From: a virus
Reading direction: 5' to 3' (one strand)
Length of the DNA stretch: 30,871 bases
UHGV virus genome: UHGV-0057520
Below, in pieces: positions 762 through 30,162 of the stretch. Both the position numbers and the translations under genes were made by a program. The stretch's first letter is position 1. Each line of letters begins with the position of its first letter. The notes below the pieces were generated by a model. That model was not told the origin of the DNA, did no database searches, and saw only the letters and a list, made by a program, of their open reading frames with translations.

Positions 762-1034
762 TTACCTCGCCGTCAGTTGTTTTGATTTCCGGTAGCCTGC
801 CGAGTAAATGGCTACGTTTGGCAGGCAAATACTTCCACTGCATTCATCTGCCTTCTTGCTGAGAAGGCTGCCAAGTGATGCTGCTTTGTCTGCTCTGACG
901 CAACCAGAGAGCTTTAGCGCAATTTTTCGCGCCAGTCGCTGCTCTTGCATTGCCTGTTCACGTTGAGCCTGTCTGCGTGCTCTGCGGCGATTTCTGGCGT
1001 TATCGTCAGCCAGATATGTAATGACTACTGTCAT
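762..1034 (-). CDS. N: antitermination protein N (P22 gene 24-like)
   Basis: 90 aa; begins MTV(V)ITY and ends YRKSKQLTAR, matching my recollection of P22 gp24; arginine-rich RNA-binding motif (ARNRRRARRQAQREQ) near the N-terminus; sits downstream of oL/nutL. Confidence 0.8.
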   Translation of the reverse strand: MTVVITYLADDNARNRRRARRQAQREQAMQEQRLARKIALKLSGCVRADKAASLGSLLSKKADECSGSICLPNVAIYSAGYRKSKQLTAR

Positions 1035-1402: not shown

Positions 1403-1771
1403 TTAGTCAGCGAAGGTTAAGACGAGAATTACCTTAATGATGTCTGCTACAACAGACACGGCCATAGATAAACCAAAGACGATCCAAGCCACAGTGATGT
1501 CTTCACTACCATCGTATAGAGTTCCGTAATCACTGGTGTAAGGCGTAAATGTCGCGCCTTGATACAATAGGTATAAGCTTGATCCATAGAGGATAAATGC
1601 AGATATCCCTTGTATTGCTATGATCACAAGAATCATGAAACGAGCTGATCTATGCGCCCAAGCCTGGCTTATTTTTTCTGATAGAGATTTCGCAATAAAA
1701 GCATGCGCTAAGCCGTAAATTGTCGAGATTGCCAACATCCCAAAAAAGCTTGCTATAGCGGTTCCAACCAT
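1403..1771 (-). CDS. small multi-pass membrane protein co-transcribed with cI (candidate lysogen-expressed exclusion protein)
   Basis: ORF track 1403..1792 begins on TTG overlapping the cI stop; first ATG at 1769-1771 preceded by a GGGG ribosome-binding site; about 122 aa with three to four hydrophobic helices; occupies the position rexA/rexB hold in lambda. Confidence 0.6.
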   Translation of the reverse strand: MVGTAIASFFGMLAISTIYGLAHAFIAKSLSEKISQAWAHRSARFMILVIIAIQGISAFILYGSSLYLLYQGATFTPYTSDYGTLYDGSEDITVAWIVFGLSMAVSVVADIIKVILVLTFAD

Positions 1772-1788
1772 AAGCGCCCCTTGCGTGA

Positions 1789-2505
1789 TCAAACCAGCCT
1801 TAGTTTTGTCTCAATTGCAACGCCTATAATCTTGCAGTTTCCATTGATTGGCACGAGAGGCCATGCAGGATTAAGTCCCTTGAGGTATTTATTTCCGCCG
1901 TCGATTATCAGCTTCTTGAATGTTGCTTCGTTAGAGTCAGAAAGTTTTGCTATGACCAAGCTGCCGTTGATCGCCTCCCTTCCGGTATCGAAAAGAACGA
2001 ATGTTCCCTCTGGAATGCTTAACCCAACCGGTGCCGTCATTGAATCACCTTCCACTTTAAGCCAGAACGCATTACCTTGAATATGCGCGTCAGACTCAAG
2101 CCAAACATCTATGTCTTTAATGGTGTATGGTTCGCATGCTTCACACCACGAGCCAGCCTGGATACTGCTTAACACCGGATACCTCTTTCCTGCTCTGTAT
2201 TCCCCTGCATACCTTACGTTGGCATCGCTCTTAAGGCTTTCTGCCTGTTCTGCAACCTTGGCAGCAATTGACTGGCTAAAATCAGCAATTGAGACTTGCA
2301 ACAATCGTGCAAAACCAGATGCAACCTCAACGTTTAGCGCGTTTCTGCCATTAAGATAATGCCCTACCGCTCCTTGGGTGATACCCAGTTCATCAGCGAT
2401 TGAGTATTGGGTTATTCCCAATTCTTTCTTTTTTGACTCATACAAAGCCTTAAGCCGCTTAGCGTCTTCGAGCTGTTCTGTCGTCAGTGATTTTTTATTT
2501 TCCAT
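1789..2505 (-). CDS. cI: cI-type prophage repressor (HTH N-terminal domain, LexA/S24-like C-terminal autocleavage domain)
   Basis: 238 aa; N-terminus LTTEQLEDAKRLKALYESKKKELGITQ and C-terminus FWLKVEGDSMTAP...TFKKLI closely parallel lambda cI as I recall it; divergent from cro across an operator region. Confidence 0.9.
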   Translation of the reverse strand: MENKKSLTTEQLEDAKRLKALYESKKKELGITQYSIADELGITQGAVGHYLNGRNALNVEVASGFARLLQVSIADFSQSIAAKVAEQAESLKSDANVRYAGEYRAGKRYPVLSSIQAGSWCEACEPYTIKDIDVWLESDAHIQGNAFWLKVEGDSMTAPVGLSIPEGTFVLFDTGREAINGSLVIAKLSDSNEATFKKLIIDGGNKYLKGLNPAWPLVPINGNCKIIGVAIETKLRLV

Positions 2506-2914: not shown

Positions 2915-3193
2915 ATGCAACTTACAAGTACTCGCAAGAAAGCGAATGCAATTACAAGCAACATCCTGAATCGAATTGCTGTACGTGGTCAGCGAAAGGT
3001 TGCCGACGCGTTAGGGATTAATGAATCGCAAATTTCGCGATGGAAAGACAGCTTCATCCCAAAAATGGGAATGCTTCTGGCTGTTCTTGAATGGGGTGTT
3101 GAAGACGAGGAGTTGGCGGAACTGGCTAAGAAAGTAGCCAGAATGCTGACAAAAGAAAAAGCCCCGAAGAACGGCGAATTCTTCGAGGCCTGA
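2915..3193 (+). CDS. cII: cII transcriptional activator
   Basis: 92 aa; ESQISRWKDSFIPKMGMLLAVLEWGVEDEE is near-identical to the lambda cII core as I recall it. Confidence 0.85.
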   Translation: MQLTSTRKKANAITSNILNRIAVRGQRKVADALGINESQISRWKDSFIPKMGMLLAVLEWGVEDEELAELAKKVARMLTKEKAPKNGEFFEA

Positions 3194-3389: not shown

Positions 3390-4266
3390 GTTAGCTGATT
3401 ACAGGCATAACCCTGTACAACATCAGGAGGCATCCAGTATGGGGTATGTCTCTATACACCGCCAGTTTATGGACAGCAGGCTCTATAAGGACTCTCAGGC
3501 AGTACATCTTTGGCTTCACTTAATTCTCAAGGCTAATCACGAATCTACTGTCGTCAATACGGATATCGGGCCGATAACTGTTGATCGCGGTCAGATGATA
3601 ACTGGACGCCCGTCGCTGGTCAGAGAAACATTCATCCCCGACAACAAAGTTCGGAGCTTATTACGGACTTTTGAGTCGAAAGGGATGCTTAATATTTGCT
3701 CGATGGGGAAGAAATTTAGCCTGTTTACAATCGTTAAATATGACGATTTTCAGGCAAAAAATTGTCCAACGGTTGTCCAACGGTTGTCCAACGCAAACAC
3801 CAGTAATGGCGCGGCTCTCAGCGGAGATTGTCCAACGGTTGTCCAACAGTTGTCCATAAACAATAATATAAATAATATCTCTAATACTGACGTATTAGAG
3901 AGTGCCACAGCAGACAAAAAGTCTGACAAGAAAAAACCTTCCGTTAGCTGTCAGGATGTTGTCGATGCTTACCACGAAATCCTTCCTGAAGCGCCAAGAA
4001 TCCGCGCACTGAATGACAAGCGTAAAAACCAGATCCGAACGTTCTGGCGCAAAGCCGGAGTGATAACCCGCCAGCTTGACGGGCATGGGTTCACGATGCA
4101 GGACTGGAGAAATTATTTGAGCTACGTAGGCGAAAATTGCCGATGGATGTTCGAAGAACGCCCAAACCATCAACGCGGAACCGTCTGGCACAAAAAGGGA
4201 TTTGATTTCCTGCTTAACGACAATACCTACCTGAAAGTTCGTGAGGGTGAACACGATGACCGATAA
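3376..4266 (+). CDS. replication initiation protein (lambda O / P22 gene 18 analogue)
   Basis: 296 aa directly upstream of the helicase gene; contains the origin iteron array inside its coding sequence, as lambda O does; AGGAG ribosome-binding site before 3376. Confidence 0.7.
   Translation: MGVVKLADYRHNPVQHQEASSMGYVSIHRQFMDSRLYKDSQAVHLWLHLILKANHESTVVNTDIGPITVDRGQMITGRPSLVRETFIPDNKVRSLLRTFESKGMLNICSMGKKFSLFTIVKYDDFQAKNCPTVVQRLSNANTSNGAALSGDCPTVVQQLSINNNINNISNTDVLESATADKKSDKKKPSVSCQDVVDAYHEILPEAPRIRALNDKRKNQIRTFWRKAGVITRQLDGHGFTMQDWRNYLSYVGENCRWMFEERPNHQRGTVWHKKGFDFLLNDNTYLKVREGEHDDR
3762..3900 (+). repeat. replication origin: six direct iterons (TTGTCCAACGG-like) plus adjacent AT-rich segment
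   Basis: Copies at 3762, 3773, 3784, 3827, 3838 and 3849 (last truncated), followed by AAACAATAATATAAATAATATCTCTAATACT; translated as the repeated CPTVVQRLSN peptide. Confidence 0.7.
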
Positions 4267-5692
4267 TTTTTATGCGCCGCCCCATAGCATCGAGGCAGAG
4301 CAGGCGGTGATTGGTGGATTGCTTCTGGATGATGACAGCAGTGAGCGCGTCCAGAAAGTTCTGGCGATGCTGAAGCCTGATTCATTTTACAGCCGACCAC
4401 ACAAAATCCTTTTCGAAGAAATAACCAGAATGCACCGGGAGCAAAAGCCAGTAGATGGCCTGACGCTTTTCGATGAACTGGAGCGTAAATCGTTAACGGC
4501 GTCTGTTGGCGGTTTTGCTTATATCGCTGAGATCGCAAAGAACACGCCAAGCGCAGCAAACATCGTTGCCTATGCAATGCAGGTTCGCGAAACCGCAATG
4601 GAACGCTATGCCATCAACCGCATGACTGAAGCGACGGAATTGCTCTATTCCCGCAACGGAATGACTGCAACGCAGAAGTACGAAGCTATTCAGGCGATTT
4701 TCACGCAACTGACAGACCATGCAAAAACCGGATCGCGTCGCGGCCTTCGCTCATTTGGTGAGGTCATGGAAGACTGGGTTAGCGACCTTGAGAAGCGATT
4801 TGACCCGTCAGGCGAACAACGAGGAATGAGCACAGGGATCCCATCTCTGGACAGGATGCTGTCACCGAAAGGTCTGGTGAAAGGCTCTCTGTTCGTCATT
4901 GGCGCTCGCCCTAAGATGGGGAAAACGACGCTATACAGCCAGATGGCAATCAACTGCGCAGTGCATGAGAAAAAGCCCGCTCTGATGTTCAGCCTTGAAA
5001 TGCCAGGTGATCAGATACTTGAAAAACTGGTAGGACAGAAGTCAGGTGTTAACCCAAATATTTTTTACCTTCCGGCGACAAATGACGCCGATGACGGCTA
5101 TCAGGGTGATTACGATGGTGACTTCAACAGGGCGATCGAAACAGCTAATCGCTTGAGTGAAATCGACATGCTTTACATCGACGACACGCCGGGATTATCT
5201 CTGGCTCAAATCGTCAGCGAAAGCCGTCGAATCAAGCGAGAAAAAGGATGTGTTGGCATGATTCTGGTCGATTACCTGACACTAATGACCGCTGAGAAGG
5301 CCGATCGCAACGACCTTGCTTACGGCATGATCACCAAAGGACTGAAGAACCTTGCCAAAGAGCTTGATTGCGTTGTTGCGCTTCTGACGCAGCTTAACCG
5401 CGCATTGGAAAGCCGAACCAATAAACGCCCATTACCAAGTGACTCGCGCGATACAGGACAGATTGAACAGGATTGCGATTATTGGGTGGGGATCCATCGT
5501 GAAGGTGCTTTTGATGACAGTGTTCCACCTGGTGAAACCGAACTAATCCTTCGTCTCAATCGTCATGGCAATACCGGCACGGTGTATTGCATTCAGGCAA
5601 ATGGCGCTATTTATGACACAGACCAACAGTCTGCTGAAATGCGCCGCCGTGAACGCGAGGAACCGCAGTCCAAGAAGAAAGGAGGATTCTGA
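4256..5692 (+). CDS. DnaB-family replicative helicase (P22 gene 12 analogue)
   Basis: ORF track starts on GTG at 4241; ATG at 4256 with GAGGGTG upstream; DnaB-like N-terminus (HSIEAEQAVIGGLLLD) and Walker A (GARPKMGKTT). Confidence 0.85.
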   Translation: MTDNFYAPPHSIEAEQAVIGGLLLDDDSSERVQKVLAMLKPDSFYSRPHKILFEEITRMHREQKPVDGLTLFDELERKSLTASVGGFAYIAEIAKNTPSAANIVAYAMQVRETAMERYAINRMTEATELLYSRNGMTATQKYEAIQAIFTQLTDHAKTGSRRGLRSFGEVMEDWVSDLEKRFDPSGEQRGMSTGIPSLDRMLSPKGLVKGSLFVIGARPKMGKTTLYSQMAINCAVHEKKPALMFSLEMPGDQILEKLVGQKSGVNPNIFYLPATNDADDGYQGDYDGDFNRAIETANRLSEIDMLYIDDTPGLSLAQIVSESRRIKREKGCVGMILVDYLTLMTAEKADRNDLAYGMITKGLKNLAKELDCVVALLTQLNRALESRTNKRPLPSDSRDTGQIEQDCDYWVGIHREGAFDDSVPPGETELILRLNRHGNTGTVYCIQANGAIYDTDQQSAEMRRREREEPQSKKKGGF

Positions 5693-10216: not shown

Positions 10217-10458
10217 TAACTGAGCCGTAGCCACTGGCTATCCTGGATTCATCAGTGATAGTTACGCTGCGGCCTTCTACACATGACCTTCGTGAAAGCG
10301 GGTGGCAAGAGGTTGCGCTAACAACCTCCTGCCGTTTTGCCCGTGCATATCGGTCACGAACAAATCTGATTACTAAACACAGTAGCCTGGATTTGTTCTA
10401 TCAGTAATCGACCTTATTCCTAATTAAATAGAGCAAATCCCCTTATTGGGGGTAAGAC

Positions 10459-10782
10459 ATGAAGATGCCAGAAAAACATGACCTGTTAGCCGCCATTCTC
10501 GCGGCAAAGGAACAAGGCATCGGGGCAATCCTTGCGTTTGCAATGGCGTACCTTCGCGGCAGATATAATGGCGGTGCGTTTACAAAAACAGTAATCGACG
10601 CAACGATGTGCGCCATTATCGCCTGGTTCATTCGTGACCTTCTCGACTTCGCCGGACTAAGTAGCAATCTCGCTTATATAACAAGCGTGTTCATCGGCTA
10701 CATCGGTACTGACTCGATTGGTTCGCTTATCAAACGCTTCGCTGCTAAAAAAGCCGGAGTAGAAGATGGTGGAAATCAATAA
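10459..10782 (+). CDS. S: class I holin S (dual-start holin/antiholin)
   Basis: 107 aa, essentially identical to my recollection of lambda S, including the MKM dual-start motif. Confidence 0.9.
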
Positions 10783-11242
10783 TCAACGTAAGGCGTTCCT
10801 CGATATGCTGGCGTGGTCAGAAGGAACAGATAACGGACGGCAGAAAACCAGAAATCACGGTTATGATGTTATTGTCGGTGGCGAGCTGTTCACTGATTAC
10901 TCCGATCACCCCCGCAAACTTGTCACGCTAAATCCGAAACTCAAATCAACAGCCGCCGGACGTTACCAGCTTCTTTCCCGTTGGTGGGATGCCTATCGTA
11001 AGCAGCTTGGCCTGAAAGACTTCTCTCCGAAAAGCCAGGACGCTGTGGCACTGCAACAGATTAAAGAGCGTGGCGCTTTACCGATGATTGATCGCGGTGA
11101 TATTCGTCAGGCTATCGACCGTTGCAGCAATATCTGGGCTTCACTGCCTGGCGCTGGTTATGGTCAGTTCGAGCATAAGGCTGACAGCCTGATTGCAAAA
11201 TTCAAAGAGGCTGGCGGAACGGTCAGAGAGATTGAGGTATGA
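10766..11242 (+). CDS. R: endolysin R (lytic transglycosylase)
   Basis: 158 aa, very close to lambda R as recalled; overlaps the holin 3' end as in lambda. Confidence 0.9.
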
Positions 11243-11676
11243 GCAGAGTCGCCGCGATTATTTATGCTCTGGTTATCTGCATCATCGTCTGCCTGTCATG
11301 GGCTGTTAATCATTACCGTGATAACGCCACCGCCTACAAAGAGCAGCGCGATAAAGCCATATCCATCATCGCTGATATGCAGAAGCGGCAACGTGATGTA
11401 GCAGAACTCGACGCCAGATACACAAAGGAGCTTGCTGATGCTAACGCGACTATCGAAAGTCTCCGTGCTGATGTTTCTGCTGGGCGTAAGCGCCTGCAAG
11501 TCGCCGCCACCTGTGCAAAGTCAACGACCGGAGCCAGCGGCATGGGCGATGGAGAAAGCCCAAGACTTACAGCAGATGCTGAACTCAATTATTACCGTCT
11601 CCGAAGTGGAATCGACAAGATAACCGCGCAGGTTAACTACCTGCAGGAGTACATCAGGACGCAATGCCTGAAATAA
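11239..11676 (+). CDS. Rz: spanin inner-membrane subunit Rz
   Basis: N-terminal [30 protein letters not shown] is near-identical to lambda Rz; coiled-coil periplasmic domain. Confidence 0.85.
11438..11623 (+). CDS. Rz1: spanin outer-membrane lipoprotein Rz1 (embedded in Rz, +1 frame)
   Basis: ATG at 11438 with GGAG upstream; signal peptide and lipobox (LLGVSAC) followed by a proline-rich segment. Confidence 0.7.
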
Positions 11677-11708
11677 TTTTTTTGCAAATCACAAAGTCAA
11701 TTTAATGA

Positions 11709-11731
11709 GCCTCGCGATGCGGGGCTTTTTT
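11709..11731 (+). terminator. rho-independent terminator after the lysis cassette
   Basis: GCCTCGC-GAT-GCGGGGC hairpin (7 bp, one G-U pair) followed by TTTTTT. Confidence 0.6.
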
Positions 11732-11878
11732 ATGTCCGCAGTAAACGCGCTTCACACGCGCGACTTATGAACACAGAACCTTTCAGGATGACCCTTGAGG
11801 ATGCCGGTTTGGTGATCGGTGCCTTTCTGTGGGCCGGAATCCTGTGTGACAAGGTTCATCACTAAAAGGTGAACACTG

Positions 11879-12421
11879 ATGAATTATCCAACTATCGTTA
11901 ACGGCATCGATTTCCGAGATCTGATTTTTGTGGCAAACAACGATCCGGTTACAGATTCTTTTATGGTGGCAAAAGCATTTGGAAAGCTGCCGAAGAACGT
12001 GGTTCGTGACATTGAACGAACCATAGAAGCTTGCCCTCCTGAGTTTGATACAAAGCTCAACTTTGAGCTTTGCTATAAAAACAATGAGTTACAGAATGGT
12101 AAGCCGCAAAAATTCTACCGTCTCCGCAAGGATGGGTTGATGCTTTTGGTTATGTCCTACACCAAAAAAGAAGCAATGCGTATCAAAATTGCTTACATCA
12201 ACGCATTCAACTGGATGTACGCCATGCTTCAGGTTGGTCATCGTCAATTTGAAGAAGAGAGAAATGCCGTAATGCTGGAGTACATGAAAGAGAAGGATGT
12301 TGCCAGCATGTCAGGCCGCCTGCTTAATCGCTGGGGAAAAATTAAGAAGCCTCAGCTACTGGCGAGAATTGAACGCCTTGAACAGCACGGGCAAACCGTA
12401 ATCCCCGGACTCACCAATTAA
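11879..12421 (+). CDS. rha: Rha-family phage regulatory protein
   Basis: 180 aa; N-terminal region resembles the Rha domain and sits between lysis and terminase genes, as in P22-like genomes. Confidence 0.6.
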   Translation: MNYPTIVNGIDFRDLIFVANNDPVTDSFMVAKAFGKLPKNVVRDIERTIEACPPEFDTKLNFELCYKNNELQNGKPQKFYRLRKDGLMLLVMSYTKKEAMRIKIAYINAFNWMYAMLQVGHRQFEEERNAVMLEYMKEKDVASMSGRLLNRWGKIKKPQLLARIERLEQHGQTVIPGLTN

Positions 12422-23323: not shown

Positions 23324-24736
23324 ATGGCTACTTGGCAACAAGGAATCAACTCAGGCGGTTTTCTTGCTGGTATCGGTGGGCAAAACTCAAATGCGCCAAA
23401 GGCAAGTGATGTAAGTGAGGCGTTGGCCTATATTCGCCAGAACAACGAAATGGAGCGTTCAGGTCGCAATAACATCGGCCTTCAGGCGTTGCAGGGACTT
23501 GGTAGTGTCGCTCAAACATATCAAGCCGCAAAGCAACAGGAAGCGGATGCTGCATTCCAAAAAGAATATGCGGCAGCCATCCAGTCAGGCGATCGACAGC
23601 AGGTGCGAGATTTGATGACCAAATATCCTGGTCAATTAGAGAAGATTCAGTCTGGCATGAAGTGGGCAGACGAAGACCAGCGCAACTCTATCGGCACCTT
23701 AGCGGCTGGCGCTCGCCTTGCGGCATCGTCTCCAGAAGCAATGCAATCATGGCTACAAAACAACGCCAAGGAACTGACTCGCGTCGGTGTTGACCCTAAT
23801 AACGTTGCTCAGATGTATCAGCAGAACCCTTCAGGATTTGGTGAGTTTGTTGATCACCTTGGGATGGCTGCGCTTGGTCCGATTGATTACTTCAATGTTC
23901 AGGACAAGATGGCTGGTCGTGAGATTGACCGAGGCGGGCTGGCAGAGACAATCCGCAGCAATCAGGCTGGTGAAGCACTTCAGGCGAGAGGGCAAAACCT
24001 TTCCTATCAGTCAGCAATGACTGGGCACAATATCGCAGCACAACGCTTGGCTCTGGATCAGCAAGAGTTCGGGTTTAAGATGCAGCAAGCGCAGGAAAAG
24101 GCTCAGCAGTTGATTAGCGAAGCACCTAAGCTGTCAGTAAACATGGAAAAAGGCATCGAGACGGCTGTAAACAATGCCACAGCATCATCAAACTCAGCCA
24201 ATTCCATGAGTGCGCTTGCTCAACAGTTCAGAGCAGAAAAACCAACGACCGGCTTGTTCGGTAACGCACAGAACATGTTCGCAAAACTTACCGGAAGCGA
24301 TACGACATTGCGTGATTTGCGCATTCGCCAAAATGCCCTTGTTAACAGTCAGGTTCTTAAATTCCTACCTCCCGGCCCAGCAACGGATAAAGACGTTGAG
24401 ATCGTTCGACAGGGTGCGCCAACTGACATGGATAACCCTGAGACGGTCGCAAGATGGCTTGATGCAATGGCAAACCTTGAGCGACGAAACGCGCAGTTTA
24501 ATGAGTTTAAAGCTGAGTGGATGAGCGCGAATGGCAACCCTGGACAATCGCGTAATGGCGGTCAGATATTGGGGTTGGATGTTAAAAAAGGTGAATCATT
24601 GGGGAGTGCCGTTAAGCGGTATATGTCAATGAATACTGACGCAGCGCCAGCACAAGATTCGACACCTTCAGGAGAACCACGGAATCAGGTTGGATCATAT
24701 ACCTCAAAATCAGGCATTCAATTTACGGTGGAATGA
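23324..24736 (+). CDS. ejection protein, gp20-like
   Basis: 470 aa (P22 gp20 is about 471 aa); assigned by synteny and size. Confidence 0.7.
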
Positions 24737-26580
24737 TGAAAGTAACTGCAAACGGTAAGACATTTACCTTTCCTGATGGTACGAGCACCGAAGATATTGG
24801 CACCGCCATTGATGAGTATTTTGCTGGTCAGGCTGTTCAGCAACAAACAGTTAATCAGGCCAATAATGCACCAACACGGGAAGAACCATCATTGATGCAA
24901 CAAGCTGGCGATTGGCTCACTGGTGGTCAAAGTGCAGGGCAAATTGCGGAACAGGCTGGTCGTGGTCTGGTAAACATACCATTTGACGTATTGCAGGGCG
25001 GCGCAAGTCTGATTAATGCAATCAGCCAGGGGCTTGGTGGCCCCAAGGTTTTGGACGATGTCTATCGTCCAGTCGATCGACCAACAGACCCTTATGCGCA
25101 AGCTGGAGAAACAATTGGCGGGTATTTAGTTCCAGGAGTTGGAACGGCAGGAAGCATGGCTATTGGATCACTGGCAGAGGCCGCAAATCAGAAAGGCGAT
25201 TTCGCACAAAATGCAGCTAAAAATGCCGGAGTTAACCTTGCCGCTCAGGGGGTTCTTTCCGCAGCAGCAAAGGGAATAGGGCGTGGAATAACGGCTATAA
25301 AAGGTGATATTGCGCCAGAAGTGGCGAAGAAAATTGCCACATCAGAATCGATGGGCGTGACACCAATGACATCTGATGTTATCACGCCGAAAAATGCTTT
25401 CACTCGCGGCCTAACTCAGGATGCCGAGGGGGCTTTGCTCGGGACAGGCTCAAAGCGAGCGGAGCAATATGCAACGCGTAGTAAGCTGGTAAGTAATTAT
25501 TTTGACCGTTTTGGTGAGTACAACCCTGATGATGTGGTGAAATCTCTTACCACCACGTTAAGGGGGCGGAAGGATGCCGCTGGCGCTGTTATCAATGACG
25601 TCACCAATAAAATGGGTAATGCCGCAGTTGATACCACAAATACCATGAATGCTCTGAATACAGCGATCGCAAGACAGGAACGGCTTGGGACGTCTGCCAA
25701 TCAAAGCCTGCTTACATCCTTGCGTAACCTACGTGAAGAATTAGCAAACCCTGCAACTGATTTGGATGTTACGTTTGATCTCTTGCGTCAGCACAGAACA
25801 GCATTTAGATCTAATGTTCAGGGAGATGCTATGGTCTTCCCAAACCAGGCAAAAGCAGCTACCAATATGGTAGAGAATGCAATGTCAAAAGATCTTCGTA
25901 ACGCAGTTGCAAAAAACCTCGGTGCATCAGACGCAGCAAAATACCTTAAAGCAAATTCCGATTATGCAAACGTTTATAATAAGGTGCTTAATAAAAACAT
26001 TGCTAACAAGCTCAACAAGGCAAGCAGTGAAGCCAGTCCTGAACTTATAAATACCGTTGTATTAAGCAGAAAACCATCTGACGTGAAACGAATCTGGAGC
26101 GCATTGGATAATAAAGGGAAAGATGCTATGCGTGCAGCTTATGTCAGCAAAATAGCGGAAAAGGCCGGTGACTCTCCAGCCAAGTTCATCACTGAAGTTA
26201 ATAAGCTGAAATCTCAGTCAGGCGGTGAAATTTACAACACTATTTTTTCTGGAAAGCACATGAAAGAGCTTGATTCTCTTCATGAAGTTCTACAGCAAAC
26301 AGCAAGGTCAGACACCGCAAATGTAGTAACTCAGACGGGGCAATCGCAAGCCAACAGGATAAGGACGATTGGCGCAACTGCGACTCTTGGCGTATCAATG
26401 GGGCTTGAGGCTGGTTTCGGTGCAATGATGCGCTTGTATGAGTCAAAAGCAGCAAGGAATGCTCTCTTACGTTTGGCAAACACCAAAGCAGGAACACCAG
26501 CCTATGAAAGAGCGCTAAATAATGCTGCAAATGCGATACGCCCTATACTTTCAAGCCAAATTACAGCAGAACAGCAATAA
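24733..26580 (+). CDS. ejection protein, gp16-like
   Basis: 615 aa (P22 gp16 is about 609 aa); assigned by synteny and size. Confidence 0.7.
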
Positions 26581-26593
26581 AAATAAGATATAA

Positions 26594-27078
26594 CTATCTG
26601 ATATTACTGCTACTGTTGCATGTTACCGTGTTTCCAAATCCTGAATTGCAGTTTGTATATGTGTCAACGCGTGTTGGGTAAGGTTGAGTTATAACAGGCT
26701 GGCGCGCTTTTTGCTCGATCGCTTGCATTGTGTTTACAGCCTGATAATTCAATAAAGCCTGCTGGAATGCTTGGCTTTGTGCTATTTGTTGTGCTTGTTC
26801 TTGGCTTTGTAATTGAACATAAAGATTCTGAAGTTCAAGTCTTGCCTGTGTGTCACTTATCTTGCCTTCATCGACACCTTGCCCGAGCATCTTCGCAGCA
26901 AGGACATACAGCTTAGGTGTTGGTGCTGATGCCATGCGAGAGTCGTTCTTCAAGCTGGCATCAAGGCAATTAGCCATATCGCTAAGCTTTGGATAGCGTT
27001 GCTCGCAACTTGCCTGATAGTCGCTTACTTTTGCGCACCCAGCCAGCAGAAGCGGGATAATTAACAGTGATTTTTTCA
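26594..27078 (-). CDS. lipoprotein, about 161 aa mature-region Gln-rich (candidate exclusion or conversion factor)
   Basis: ORF track 26594..27130; likely start is the ATG at 27076-27078 giving MKKSLLIIPLLLAGC (signal peptide and lipobox); opposite strand to the flanking late genes; Gln-rich helical segment then Cys-containing C-terminus. Confidence 0.6.
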
Positions 27079-27113
27079 TATAATTAACTCTCCTTAGTTT
27101 TGCGCAGGATACC

Positions 27114-27479
27114 ATGAAAAAAGTTAACATTGGAAACGTACCAAAGATGCTCGTTCCGCTCTTTGAGAGCGGTACAATTGTGTTTTGTAGAGACTTTCCA
27201 GAATGGCAACGCCTGCATCAAAAACTTGGCGTTGACGTGCATGACTCGGACGCCAACGGAGCGTCTCATACAATGAGTAGCGAGAATGGTGTTTTGCATG
27301 TGATAGGCGTGTTCAATGGCAAACTATCTACTATTGCCCATGAGTGCGCTCACATGGCATTCGATATCTGCTCAAGGGTAGGTGTTGATGTTGAACCAGG
27401 AAGAGCCAACGAGACTTACTGCTACTTAATGAGCAGGCTTGTTGAGTTCTGCGAGCGACATATCAAAAAGCCGGAGTGA
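27114..27479 (+). CDS. small HExxH protein, possibly ImmA/IrrE-like (M78) zinc metallopeptidase
   Basis: 121 aa; HECAH motif followed about 15 residues later by RANETYCYLM, resembling the HExxH...E.EAN.FA signature of ImmA/IrrE domains as I recall them. Confidence 0.5.
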   Translation: MKKVNIGNVPKMLVPLFESGTIVFCRDFPEWQRLHQKLGVDVHDSDANGASHTMSSENGVLHVIGVFNGKLSTIAHECAHMAFDICSRVGVDVEPGRANETYCYLMSRLVEFCERHIKKPE

Positions 27480-27492
27480 CCCGGCTTGATTA

Positions 27493-27687
27493 TTACTTTT
27501 TGCTGTCTGGAGTTCGCTTATCCAATACCCAGCCATGACCTGGCTTTGTTGTTGGTGGAAGCCTTTCGTTGTCCTTGACGGTTGCAAAATTGTCTTTCTT
27601 ACCGCCGCGTGGGCCAACTTCTTGGTATATTCCGCCGTTTTTTCCTGTGTTTTCACCTGGTTTTTTCGCCATGATATACCTCAACAT
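27493..27687 (-). CDS. small basic Gly/Lys/Pro-rich hypothetical protein, 64 aa
   Basis: ORF downstream of the mnt terminator on the minus strand; low-complexity; no family recognised. Confidence 0.35.
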   Translation of the reverse strand: MLRYIMAKKPGENTGKNGGIYQEVGPRGGKKDNFATVKDNERLPPTTKPGHGWVLDKRTPDSKK

Positions 27688-27763
27688 ACACCCGTTATTG
27701 GGCGATTAAATATTGATCTCATTTTATAAGTAGTCAATATGGCCCAGGTAAATGCAAAAATTA

Positions 27764-27786
27764 ACCCACCTTCAGGTGGGTTTTTT
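27764..27786. terminator. bidirectional rho-independent terminator at the 3' end of mnt
   Basis: ACCCACC-TTCA-GGTGGGT hairpin flanked by AAAAATT upstream and TTTTTTG downstream. Confidence 0.7.
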
Positions 27787-28023
27787 GTACAAATCCTTCA
27801 GCGTATCAAACACCATCTTCTTAACAAGCTCTGACTGCTCATCAGCGATGCGTTCCGCATCGTCTCGATAGCCTGAAATTTTGGATGGCTTTGATACAGC
27901 ATCAGTCACTATCTGAACTAATTCTGAATTAAGAGAGCGGCCATTGGATTTGGCTCGCTGTTTTAGTTTTTCCTTTAATTCGTAAGGTAGCCGCAGATTA
28001 AATTGCGGGTCATCTCTTCCCAT
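27772..28023 (-). CDS. mnt: Mnt repressor (ribbon-helix-helix, P22 immI-type)
   Basis: 83 aa; NGRS.NSEL.QIV.DA.SKPS...GYR.DAER.ADEQSELVKKMVFDTLKDLYKK is near-identical to P22 Mnt as recalled. Confidence 0.85.
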   Translation of the reverse strand: MGRDDPQFNLRLPYELKEKLKQRAKSNGRSLNSELVQIVTDAVSKPSKISGYRDDAERIADEQSELVKKMVFDTLKDLYKKPT

Positions 28024-28087: not shown

Positions 28088-28100
28088 GACCACGGTGGTC
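28088..28100. promoter_or_regulatory. Mnt operator-like palindrome (O_mnt), likely overlapping a rightward promoter
   Basis: GACCACGGTGGTC is a perfect 13-bp palindrome sharing the CCACGGTGG core of the P22 mnt operator as recalled; lies between mnt and the tailspike start. Confidence 0.55.
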
Positions 28101-28170: not shown

Positions 28171-30162
28171 ATGACAGACATTACAGCCAATGTTGTAGTG
28201 AGCATGCCTTCGCAACTCTTCACTATGGCGCGTTCTTTTAAAGCCGTAGCTAATGGCAAAATTTATATCGGTAAAATTGACACTGACCCGGTAAATCCTG
28301 ATAACCAGATTCAGGTCTATGTTGAGAACGAAGATGGTTCTCACGTTCCTGTTGCACAGCCAATCGTCATCAATGCCGCTGGGTATCCAGTATATAACGG
28401 ACAGATTGCCAAATTCGTAACTGTGCAAGGCCATTCTATGGCTGTTTATGATGCATGTGGTGCGCAGCAGTTCTATTTTCCAAATGTGCTGAAGTATGAC
28501 CCGGATCAGTTAAGGCAGGAGTTAGCAAGTTCAGGTGATGATCTTGGAGATGCATTAATAGCAGTAAAACAACCATTCACCTTGTCAATAAGAAGGACGC
28601 AGCATCAAAAAAATGCCGAGCACATTAGTGTTAGTGATTTTGGTGCAAAAGGAGACGGCATAACAGATGATACTGTAGCAATTCAAAATGCTATTAATGC
28701 AGTACCAGAAGGGGCTATACTTGGATTTTATGGTGGTGAATTTGTTTTTGATAAGGTTGAATTGCTTAAGCCAATAACATTGGTTGGTGATGCAACGTTA
28801 ATTCACAACGGATTTAGAATAAAATCTAGCAGAATACGATCACTTTTATCTGGTGTTCAGAAATGCAAGGATTACTCCGAGTCTTCAAGAGCATTTTATT
28901 GCTATGCAAATGAAGACCAAAGAGATTATGACGATATTCAGATTTTGTTTAATAGATTTGAAGGTTTCTTTTACTCTACGACATTTGTTGCAAAAAACTA
29001 TTATTTGGAGAATGACCCTAATTCAAGAACTGTCAAAAATACAAAAGTAATAGGATGTACATCAGTTGCTCCTGATTCTGTAAATGCCGGTCATTTTCAA
29101 CATATAGGCGTTACAAATGCTGAAACATCACATAACTCAACTTATGGCGGACAAAATGCAACATCATACAACTTCATTAACCAGAATGGATTTGTAAGGA
29201 TTATAGGAAATTATGACCATAACAATAACTATGGTTCATGTGAGCTTGAGAACTCAATGGTGAGTAACTCAGTCATATCATGTAATACGTTTTCGTCATA
29301 TTTATGGGTGGATGATACAAGCAATGTTACTATTTCTGGAAATACAGTTTCATCAAGGATCAAAGTAACATCGCAAACTGACGATGTTCATAATATAACC
29401 ATATCAGCAAATACCACAAAACGGATTACTATAGAGCAATTTGGAGAATCTCCGACAGGTCTGGTATATGGTGCATTAATTTCCTGTAACACTATTACTG
29501 GCGACAGTGATGGAAGTTCAGACATTTTATGTACGTCACTTGTTACAGGTGAAATTTCATCAAATTATTGTCATGGATCAGAAAAAAATATATCAATTGT
29601 CCGCCTGGATTCTTCTGATATAACTGTTAGAAACAATAAAGGAAACAAAGGATTACTTACAATAAGTAACGATGGTGGGAGGATAATTGAATATGGCAAT
29701 GATTCTATGGTTCTGTCTGGAAGCATAGATAGCAGACATATACATAATTTATTACAACCAGACACATCGTATTTAGATCTACCGGGGAAATATCTGCACG
29801 GAACTAAATATACTGGCAGTATCCCCCCCGGTTCCACAGGAACTGTATCACTTCAAATACCATCAGGGGCAAGCCTTGTTTTCAGGGGTGTTTCTATATG
29901 GGTTCTAATTAGAGATGTTAGCAATAACAATATATCGTCATTCAGAATTGATGGTTCATATAGAGTTGTTGGTGGAAGTGTTGGTCTTAGTTTTGCTGAT
30001 GCTTATTCGAAACTCGGGGTGGATGCAAACTCTATAACAGTGTCAAACAATAACAGCACTTCTGACAATATCAGCATAGCAATTAAAAACACAGATTCAT
30101 CAAAAACCCTTCAGGTTACTGTTATGCCGGAGGTTTCAAGCAGGTTAGGTATTGAGGAATAG
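28171..30162 (+). CDS. tailspike: P22-type head-binding N-terminal domain fused to a different, AT-rich receptor-binding domain
   Basis: 663 aa; first ~110 residues ([11 protein letters not shown]...[20 protein letters not shown]...VLKYDPDQ) match P22 gp9; the rest carries beta-helix/pectate-lyase-like signatures ([18 protein letters not shown]) and is Asn/Ser-rich. Confidence 0.85.

Follow-up and report, generated by a model that had tools for sequence, protein, structure and literature searches.

What is the function of a short open reading frame (ORF) that carries an HExxH motif and is encoded between an injection protein gene and the tailspike gene of a P22-like phage? The locus that raises this question is part of the virus genome UHGV-0057520, a stretch of 30,871 nucleotides (hereafter the window), which represents an E. 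coli phage or prophage of the P22-like kind (Lederbergvirus) and has its best DNA matches in P22, HK620, ST160, Gally and vB_EcoP-720R6. A preliminary description made from the letters alone regarded the product of 121 amino acids (aa) as a peptidase resembling ImmA/IrrE (M78) encoded next to the Mnt repressor, and it proposed that Mnt or cI, or a host factor, could be the target, the protease acting in place of the missing antirepressor Ant. The analysis reported here leads to another answer: the ORF is the gene hkcC, and its product would be a small cytoplasmic zinc-dependent hydrolase, most likely a peptidase, that is made late, a joint reading which we consider moderately probable and which is derived from sequence comparisons.

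The product is 99.2% identical over all 121 residues to HkcC of HK620 (AAK28904.1) and to the P22 copy, and it matches PHROG 1365 (1.7e-39), which has no assigned function. This near-identity, together with the position in the HK620 slot between gene 16 and the tailspike gene, identifies the ORF by its sequence as the already catalogued hkcC, an orthologue group of P22-like phages. HK620 hkcC, the P22 copy, the UAB_Phi20 copy, SE1 orf64 and ST160 Orf64 represent the same gene in the same slot with the same bidirectional terminator, and the gene order 16, variable gene, hkcC, orf59a, (mnt), tailspike is kept. The window differs from HK620 and P22 only in minor ways, namely in its left neighbor, a lipoprotein gene instead of hkcB or sieA, and in encoding Mnt without Arc or Ant. 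Compared to ST160, hkcC shows 5 synonymous and 2 non-synonymous differences, and judged by the resulting ratio of non-synonymous to synonymous rates (dN/dS) of ~0.1, which is based on few sites, the gene is under constraint. The positions of the gene and of the residues discussed below are as follows.

27114..27479, plus strand: hkcC, 121 aa, ATG start, coordinates including the stop codon (ORF list)
27106..27109, plus strand: AGGA Shine-Dalgarno sequence/ribosome-binding site, 4 nt before the hkcC ATG (sequence)
27339..27353, plus strand: HECAH codons H76-E77-C78-A79-H80 (HExxH), near the start of the predicted helix 71-88 (sequence)
27408..27425, plus strand: N99-E100-T-Y-C-Y104 codons (ExxxY), at the start of the predicted helix 100-116
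27408..27413 and 27423..27425, plus strand: the codons of N99-E100 and of Y104, respectively, within RANETYCYLM

Published genome descriptions place hkcC in the "ant moron" region of P22 and give its function as unknown (PMC2629481; PMC4837284). In the HK620 record hkcC is annotated as "unknown", while in P22 and many relatives the ORF is unannotated or "hypothetical", and literature searches on hkcC and on phage HExxH anti-defence proteases retrieved no functional study but only genome papers naming the gene. In the P22 RefSeq entry NC_002371.2 hkcC (1501..1866) carries no coding sequence annotation; marked there are only the sieA promoter, which has minus-strand orientation and covers the initial 31 nt of hkcC, and a terminator after orf59a that bears the label mnt. 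The possibility that the ORF is an artefact of an antisense sieA-type promoter region was rejected because the ORF is conserved across the whole family. Besides the orthologues, a paralogous branch exists, including ST64T Orf-129, phage L Orf129, ST104 ORF47 and epsilon34 gp70, the members of which are 38-40% identical, of similar size and retain HExxH...ExxxY, but which sits between the lysis genes and the small terminase gene instead of in the immI region and is not accompanied by orf59a. The records of ST160, SE1, Phi75 and UAB_Phi20 contain two HkcC-matching places each, which may correspond to the immI copy and a pre-terminase paralogue.

The evidence that carries the proposed function comes from the motif and its conservation. 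As stated in the preliminary description, the product contains HECAH followed by RANETYCYLM, albeit the histidines are H76 and H80 and not H77 and H81. The window contains 394 stop-to-stop segments with a length of 40 aa or more, and HECAH is the sole HExxH in them; a search for a second family copy within the window revealed none. While a word-indexed search resulted in only 32 close relatives, a full HMMER profile search covering 1.84 billion representatives identified 552 clusters at E<=1e-3 and, with the cut-off lowered to E<=1e-10, 152. Family members are almost always stand-alone proteins of 110-140 aa, and Pfam scans of ten longer members showed no known fused domain. HExxH is kept in 141 of 145 new representatives, retaining H76, E77 and H80; of the four that lack it, three are fragments or products of frameshifts and one has HKxxH instead. 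In an alignment of 128 sequences, the members of which were picked for having HExxH, the residues that are near-invariant besides the motif are G49, G90, E100 (99%) and Y104 (96%). Moreover, ExxxY, or the same arrangement with another aromatic residue at the last position, follows 19-20 residues after the second His in 130 of the 141 representatives, and in HkcC E100 is found 20 residues after H80. An HExxH motif plus a downstream Glu, both conserved across the relatives, is what characterizes zincins of the gluzincin type. HkcC thus belongs to a large, divergent and unclassified phage family defined by the sequence signature HExxH-x(18-19)-ExxxY. That the Glu of the motif is kept as strictly as the two His suggests catalysis rather than mere metal binding, and the sequence lends good support to HkcC being a metal-dependent hydrolase, with a small zinc peptidase as the most likely kind. 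Inspection by eye revealed neither a signal peptide nor a membrane segment, so the protein is presumably cytoplasmic. As a separate observation, lambdoid members (mEp044_72, encoded at 4001..4585 of locus L005, as well as the proteins P0065 and P0068) have an acidic helical linker and a Lys-rich tail. The peptide VPR[VI]xxxKRG/W is conserved at the end of this tail, which could serve in targeting or in binding DNA.

The predicted structure was compared with this assignment. AlphaFold2 (AF2) modelled HkcC with a predicted local distance difference test (pLDDT) score of 83.5 using an alignment of 19 sequences, and with a pLDDT of 93.4 and a predicted template modelling (pTM) score of 0.86 using 132 diverse sequences, for which the five models agree. 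The model consists of strands 11-13 and 21-25, helix 28-38, strands 49-56 and 59-66, helix 71-88 containing HExxH, and helix 100-116 starting at E100. A minimal zincin is built in the order sheet, backing helix, active-site helix and Glu helix, and the order of elements in the HkcC model is compatible with it, likewise with thermolysin-type or minimal gluzincin scaffolds. In thermolysin-type gluzincins (M4) the Glu follows 20 residues after the second His, H146 and E166 in thermolysin, as it does in HkcC. This thermolysin-like H80-E100 spacing explains the weak phmmer alignments to neutral protease/thermolysin (E 0.09-0.66), which run from just before HExxH to beyond E100. In contrast to thermolysin, HkcC comprises only 121 aa, has ExxxY where thermolysin has ExxxD, and shows neither a significant sequence match nor a listed fold match to it. 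Sub-threshold profile matches to structures in the PDB (E 0.15-1.3) include myroilysin, the astacins BMP1/tolloid-like 1, thermolysin and an M35 peptidyl-Lys metalloendopeptidase, and in all but thermolysin the alignment covers the strand region that precedes the motif together with the HExxH helix; these matches are not significant, but they are suggestive. When 132 relatives were scanned, single ones matched other zincin families, namely DUF5700, DUF4344, DA1-like, M48 and Reprolysin_2. The only hits of HkcC in the Pfam, NCBIfam and PADLOC scans were lantibiotic matches on its HEC...C stretch, which were dismissed as chance.

On this basis, HkcC would act as a minimal gluzincin-like peptidase or a closely related hydrolase. 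H76, H80 and E100 would hold the zinc ion, E77 would serve as the general base that activates the water molecule, and Y104 would help to stabilize the transition state. The substrate might be a host or phage protein that is cleaved in late infection.

The timing of expression is suggested by the genes around hkcC, which are given here with their positions.

24733..26580, plus strand: gene 16, injection protein (ORF list and profile scans)
26594..27079, minus strand: lipoprotein gene, 161 aa, lipobox LLLAGC (PHROG 6067, 3.8e-109)
27468..27487, both strands: bidirectional intrinsic terminator hairpin AAGCCGG...CCGGCTT (terminator scan)
27493..27687, minus strand: orf59a, 64-aa YjzC-like ORF (PHROG 3202, 1.3e-31)
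27709..27737, minus strand: sigma-70 promoter-like site TTGACT-17-AATATT upstream of orf59a (consensus scan)
27772..28023, minus strand: mnt, ribbon-helix-helix repressor (profile scan)
28171..30162, plus strand: tailspike gene (ORF list and profile scans)

The hairpin at 27468..27487 overlaps the stop codon of hkcC, is common to hkcC and orf59a, and is annotated as tORF59A in HK620. The annotated start of orf59a in P22/RefSeq would give 59 aa, and the product matches PF14168 at E 0.0017, below the cut-off. Where the HkcC homologue is at least 46% identical, an orf59a homologue in convergent orientation comes next, and the pair occurs in P22-like phages, in siphovirus prophages of Klebsiella oxytoca and Rosenbergiella, in two further viral clusters, in Xenorhabdus and Proteus, and in a Pasteurellaceae genome. 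In Xenorhabdus, Proteus and Pasteurellaceae Orf59a is 64-79% identical compared to 46-63% for HkcC. Among 5,426 complete E. coli genomes, 132 contain the two genes, both annotated as hypothetical. The branch of ~40% identity lacks orf59a. Within their own subfamily hkcC, the shared bidirectional terminator and orf59a form a two-gene cassette. Siphovirus prophages (L009 and L113) share with the window the terminator hairpin and the identical hexamer pair TTGACT-17-AATATT in the same relative place; the latter looks like a promoter, and orf59a would be a self-contained unit.

For hkcC itself a crude consensus scan of the plus strand found no promoter-like site, and the region homologous to P22 and HK620 begins only 28 bp before its ATG. 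Of the two hallmarks of a moron, promoter and terminator, the terminator was found for hkcC and both elements for orf59a. The gene hkcC is oriented like the late operon. This orientation, the missing site and the short conserved upstream region suggest that hkcC is read from the late operon and that orf59a is a separate unit of opposite orientation; HkcC would probably be produced late in the lytic cycle, by transcription that reads through from gene 16.

The genomic settings elsewhere were also inspected. Other phages carry the cassette in late operons: in the K. oxytoca and Rosenbergiella prophages the pair is located between tail-tube/YdaY-like genes and the tape-measure gene. (In the K. 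oxytoca prophage with the pair, L007, a nuclease-like gene of the SNIPE/T5orf172 type and Arc-like genes follow shortly after the tape-measure gene, at 10241..12221.) Relatives of ~40% identity are encoded between the lysis genes and the small terminase gene in ST64T and between the lysis genes and a likely terminase gene in mEp044, and in 6 of 9 viral-contig clusters, as judged by reading the sequences, a small-terminase-like or likely large-terminase ORF follows within two genes downstream. The family gene lies directly before the small terminase gene in one metagenomic phage, directly before the large terminase gene or before a 488-aa ORF that is probably one, and between the adaptor and a gp10-like gene in a podovirus; in an N4-like phage it diverges from a leftward block containing the large terminase gene. 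All of these relatives that lie within a morphogenetic or late gene block have the same direction as the block. Single-protein locus searches in viral contigs gave no matches.

Several observations weigh against the reading of HkcC as a late-made zinc peptidase. Scans with Pfam and NCBIfam gave no peptidase match for HkcC, and no significant hidden Markov model (HMM) or profile match to any peptidase family was obtained. The fold search with the HkcC model returned no M78 or other metallopeptidase structure and no Wss1 or Spartan structure among the matches listed. In the model E100 is the first residue of its helix, while the preceding helix extends 8 residues beyond H80. Furthermore, the proposed late expression depends on a crude consensus scan having detected no promoter. 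As judged from sequence and fold comparisons, the motif evidence for a zincin is strong and the fold evidence is absent. These comparisons decide neither way on the outcome that the preliminary description named as speaking against its reading, a lack of profile or structural support for a zincin fold. The profile-profile comparison has to be read with care: in a control, hhalign united ImmA and SprT with a probability of 2% only, so that it fails for accepted zincins and its failure for HkcC is no evidence against a zincin fold.

The absent fold match is also what speaks for the first alternative, namely that HkcC is not a peptidase but another metal-dependent hydrolase or a non-catalytic metal-binding protein with a fold unrelated to zincins: a model of high confidence has no solved metallopeptidase neighbor among the matches listed, and no peptidase HMM is significant. 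As the HExxH Glu is as invariant as the ligand residues are, which argues for catalysis, and as most of the weak sequence-profile matches are peptidases, we judge this alternative to be unlikely. Rather improbable is a second possibility, which is that HkcC represents a new compact metallohydrolase fold with a zincin-like site that either partners Orf59a or is loaded into capsids and delivered together with the DNA to cut a host defence protein. In the former variant, HkcC would be a late-made protease and Orf59a, made from the prophage, would be its partner, substrate or inhibitor; the latter would be suggested by the conserved basic C-terminal tails in lambdoid relatives.

These tails bear also on a third alternative, according to which HkcC is a SprT/Wss1-like DNA-associated protease that removes proteins bound or cross-linked to phage DNA around packaging. 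Several relatives have Lys-rich C-terminal tails that could bind DNA, although the window protein has no basic tail, and many relatives are encoded immediately upstream of small or large terminase genes. The SprT-like domain (PF10263) is the commonest weak Pfam match among the relatives of HkcC: scanned one by one, 19 of 132 match it, the best with E 1e-4, while HkcC itself has no match and E. coli SprT, used as a control, scores 2.4e-23. The comparison of the HkcC family with a SprT alignment by hhalign covers 81 columns, which begin with the N-terminal strands and end shortly after HExxH, and these strands and the helix are alignable, but the probability is only 14%; a comparison of the family profile with E. 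coli SprT and LoiP as single sequences gave no information. In SprT a His serves as the third metal ligand, and a conserved third His is absent from the list of conserved columns of the family, the invariant residue being E100; HkcC also has no zinc ribbon, and neither Wss1 nor Spartan is among the fold matches listed. Taken together, we regard a SprT-like function as quite improbable.

The conservation of the cassette could be read in a different way, namely that hkcC and orf59a are expressed from the prophage as a defence or exclusion cassette that acts in the lysogen against superinfecting phages, for example as a protease with its partner or inhibitor. The pair is kept from P22-like phages to siphovirus prophages and the Pasteurellaceae genome down to 46% HkcC identity, orf59a has its conserved promoter-like site and terminator in the manner of a moron, and slots of this kind elsewhere hold exclusion genes (sieA, lipoprotein). 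Against this, no hkcC promoter was found and only 28 bp upstream of the gene are conserved, a PADLOC scan of HkcC gave no match, the branch of ~40% identity exists without orf59a, and convergent genes with a common terminator may simply be co-inherited. A defence function is therefore very unlikely. Regarding the neighboring slot, the 161-aa lipoprotein gene (26594..27079, minus strand), which has no Pfam match and for which the listed 178-aa ORF probably starts at the second Met, occupies the place of sieA in P22 and of hkcB in HK620; the content of this slot, to the left of hkcC, differs from phage to phage, and exclusion genes may accumulate there.

This leaves the ImmA/IrrE-type (M78) protease that would cleave Mnt or C2/cI and replace Ant. 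ImmA/IrrE proteins such as phi105 ORF2 and HkcC have in common that they are small mobile-element proteins with HExxH, and HExxH plus a downstream Glu is the ligand pattern of M78; hkcC is located ~300 bp from mnt in a window from which arc and ant are missing, the absence of Ant having been correctly noticed before. H76-E77-x-x-H80 agrees with M78, but as HExxH is common to all zincins it does not discriminate for this family, and the Glu spacing is 20 in HkcC compared to ~27 in IrrE. The search against Peptidase_M78/DUF955 that had been proposed as a check was negative: PF06114 did not match HkcC at E<=10 nor any of 132 relatives at E<=0.1, while the 148-aa ImmA phi105 ORF2 scored 2.7e-18. 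Aligning the HkcC family with an ImmA alignment by hhalign gave a probability of 36%, the best score lying on the HExxH helix, but it covers 12 columns of this helix only. Hence, the recognition of a metal-binding HExxH signature was justified, whereas the resemblance to ImmA was not borne out, and HkcC is, by sequence, not an ImmA/IrrE (M78) peptidase.

The genomic location argues in the same direction. ImmA/IrrE genes stand beside the gene of their cognate helix-turn-helix (HTH) repressor and usually share its transcript; in phi105, ImmA is encoded between repressor and integrase, directly after the repressor and on the same strand. No such repressor is located beside hkcC; the nearest repressor in the window is the ribbon-helix-helix protein Mnt, which is nearby but not adjacent, as orf59a and two terminators lie in between and mnt is on the opposite strand. 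Moreover, the main repressor carries a self-cleaving S24 domain, and most of the family is found beside terminase or structural genes. P22 has a 99% identical hkcC together with mnt, arc and ant, and HK620 has hkcC with only remnants of mnt and ant. Among 80 IMG/VR loci with 99-100% identical hkcC, 70 contain orf59a, 38 a P22-type Mnt and 29 Ant, whereas 26 have neither Mnt nor Ant and 42 carry hkcC without Mnt; the left neighbor is sieA in 13, the lipoprotein gene in 18, hkcB in 8 and another gene in 41. The presence of hkcC is independent of Mnt or Ant, in line with a distribution that, unlike that of ImmA/IrrE, does not follow repressor or antirepressor genes. With co-occurrence and gene order across loci opposing a partnership with Mnt or cI and a substitution for Ant, the antirepressor protease is extremely unlikely.

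Some further features of the window concern its repressors. While mnt is present without arc or ant, a hairpin with a T run is located at 28088..28100 on the plus strand before the tailspike gene and matches the remnant tANT terminator as annotated in HK620, and a bidirectional hairpin follows mnt at 27763..27782. The immC region encodes a CI/C2-type repressor (1789..2505, minus strand) with HTH_3 and Peptidase_S24 domains, which is of the self-cleaving type; a CII homologue (2915..3193, plus strand) and an N-type antiterminator (762..1034, minus strand) are present as well.

These findings add something new, if on a modest scale: hkcC stands for an unclassified phage family, HExxH...ExxxY, that is widespread, and it has a small, conserved partner gene. 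Although P22 is among the best-studied phages, hkcC is absent from its RefSeq annotation, and the family of 552 clusters, in spite of its invariant catalytic-type metal motif, is represented by no Pfam or NCBIfam model and has no recognizable solved structural relative among the matches listed. The analysis also removes an annotation as ImmA-like antirepressor that is tempting but wrong. Should HkcC be an active protease, the protein that it cleaves would mark a new point of interaction between phage and host or between phages, and this would be easy to test in the genetic systems of P22 and HK620.
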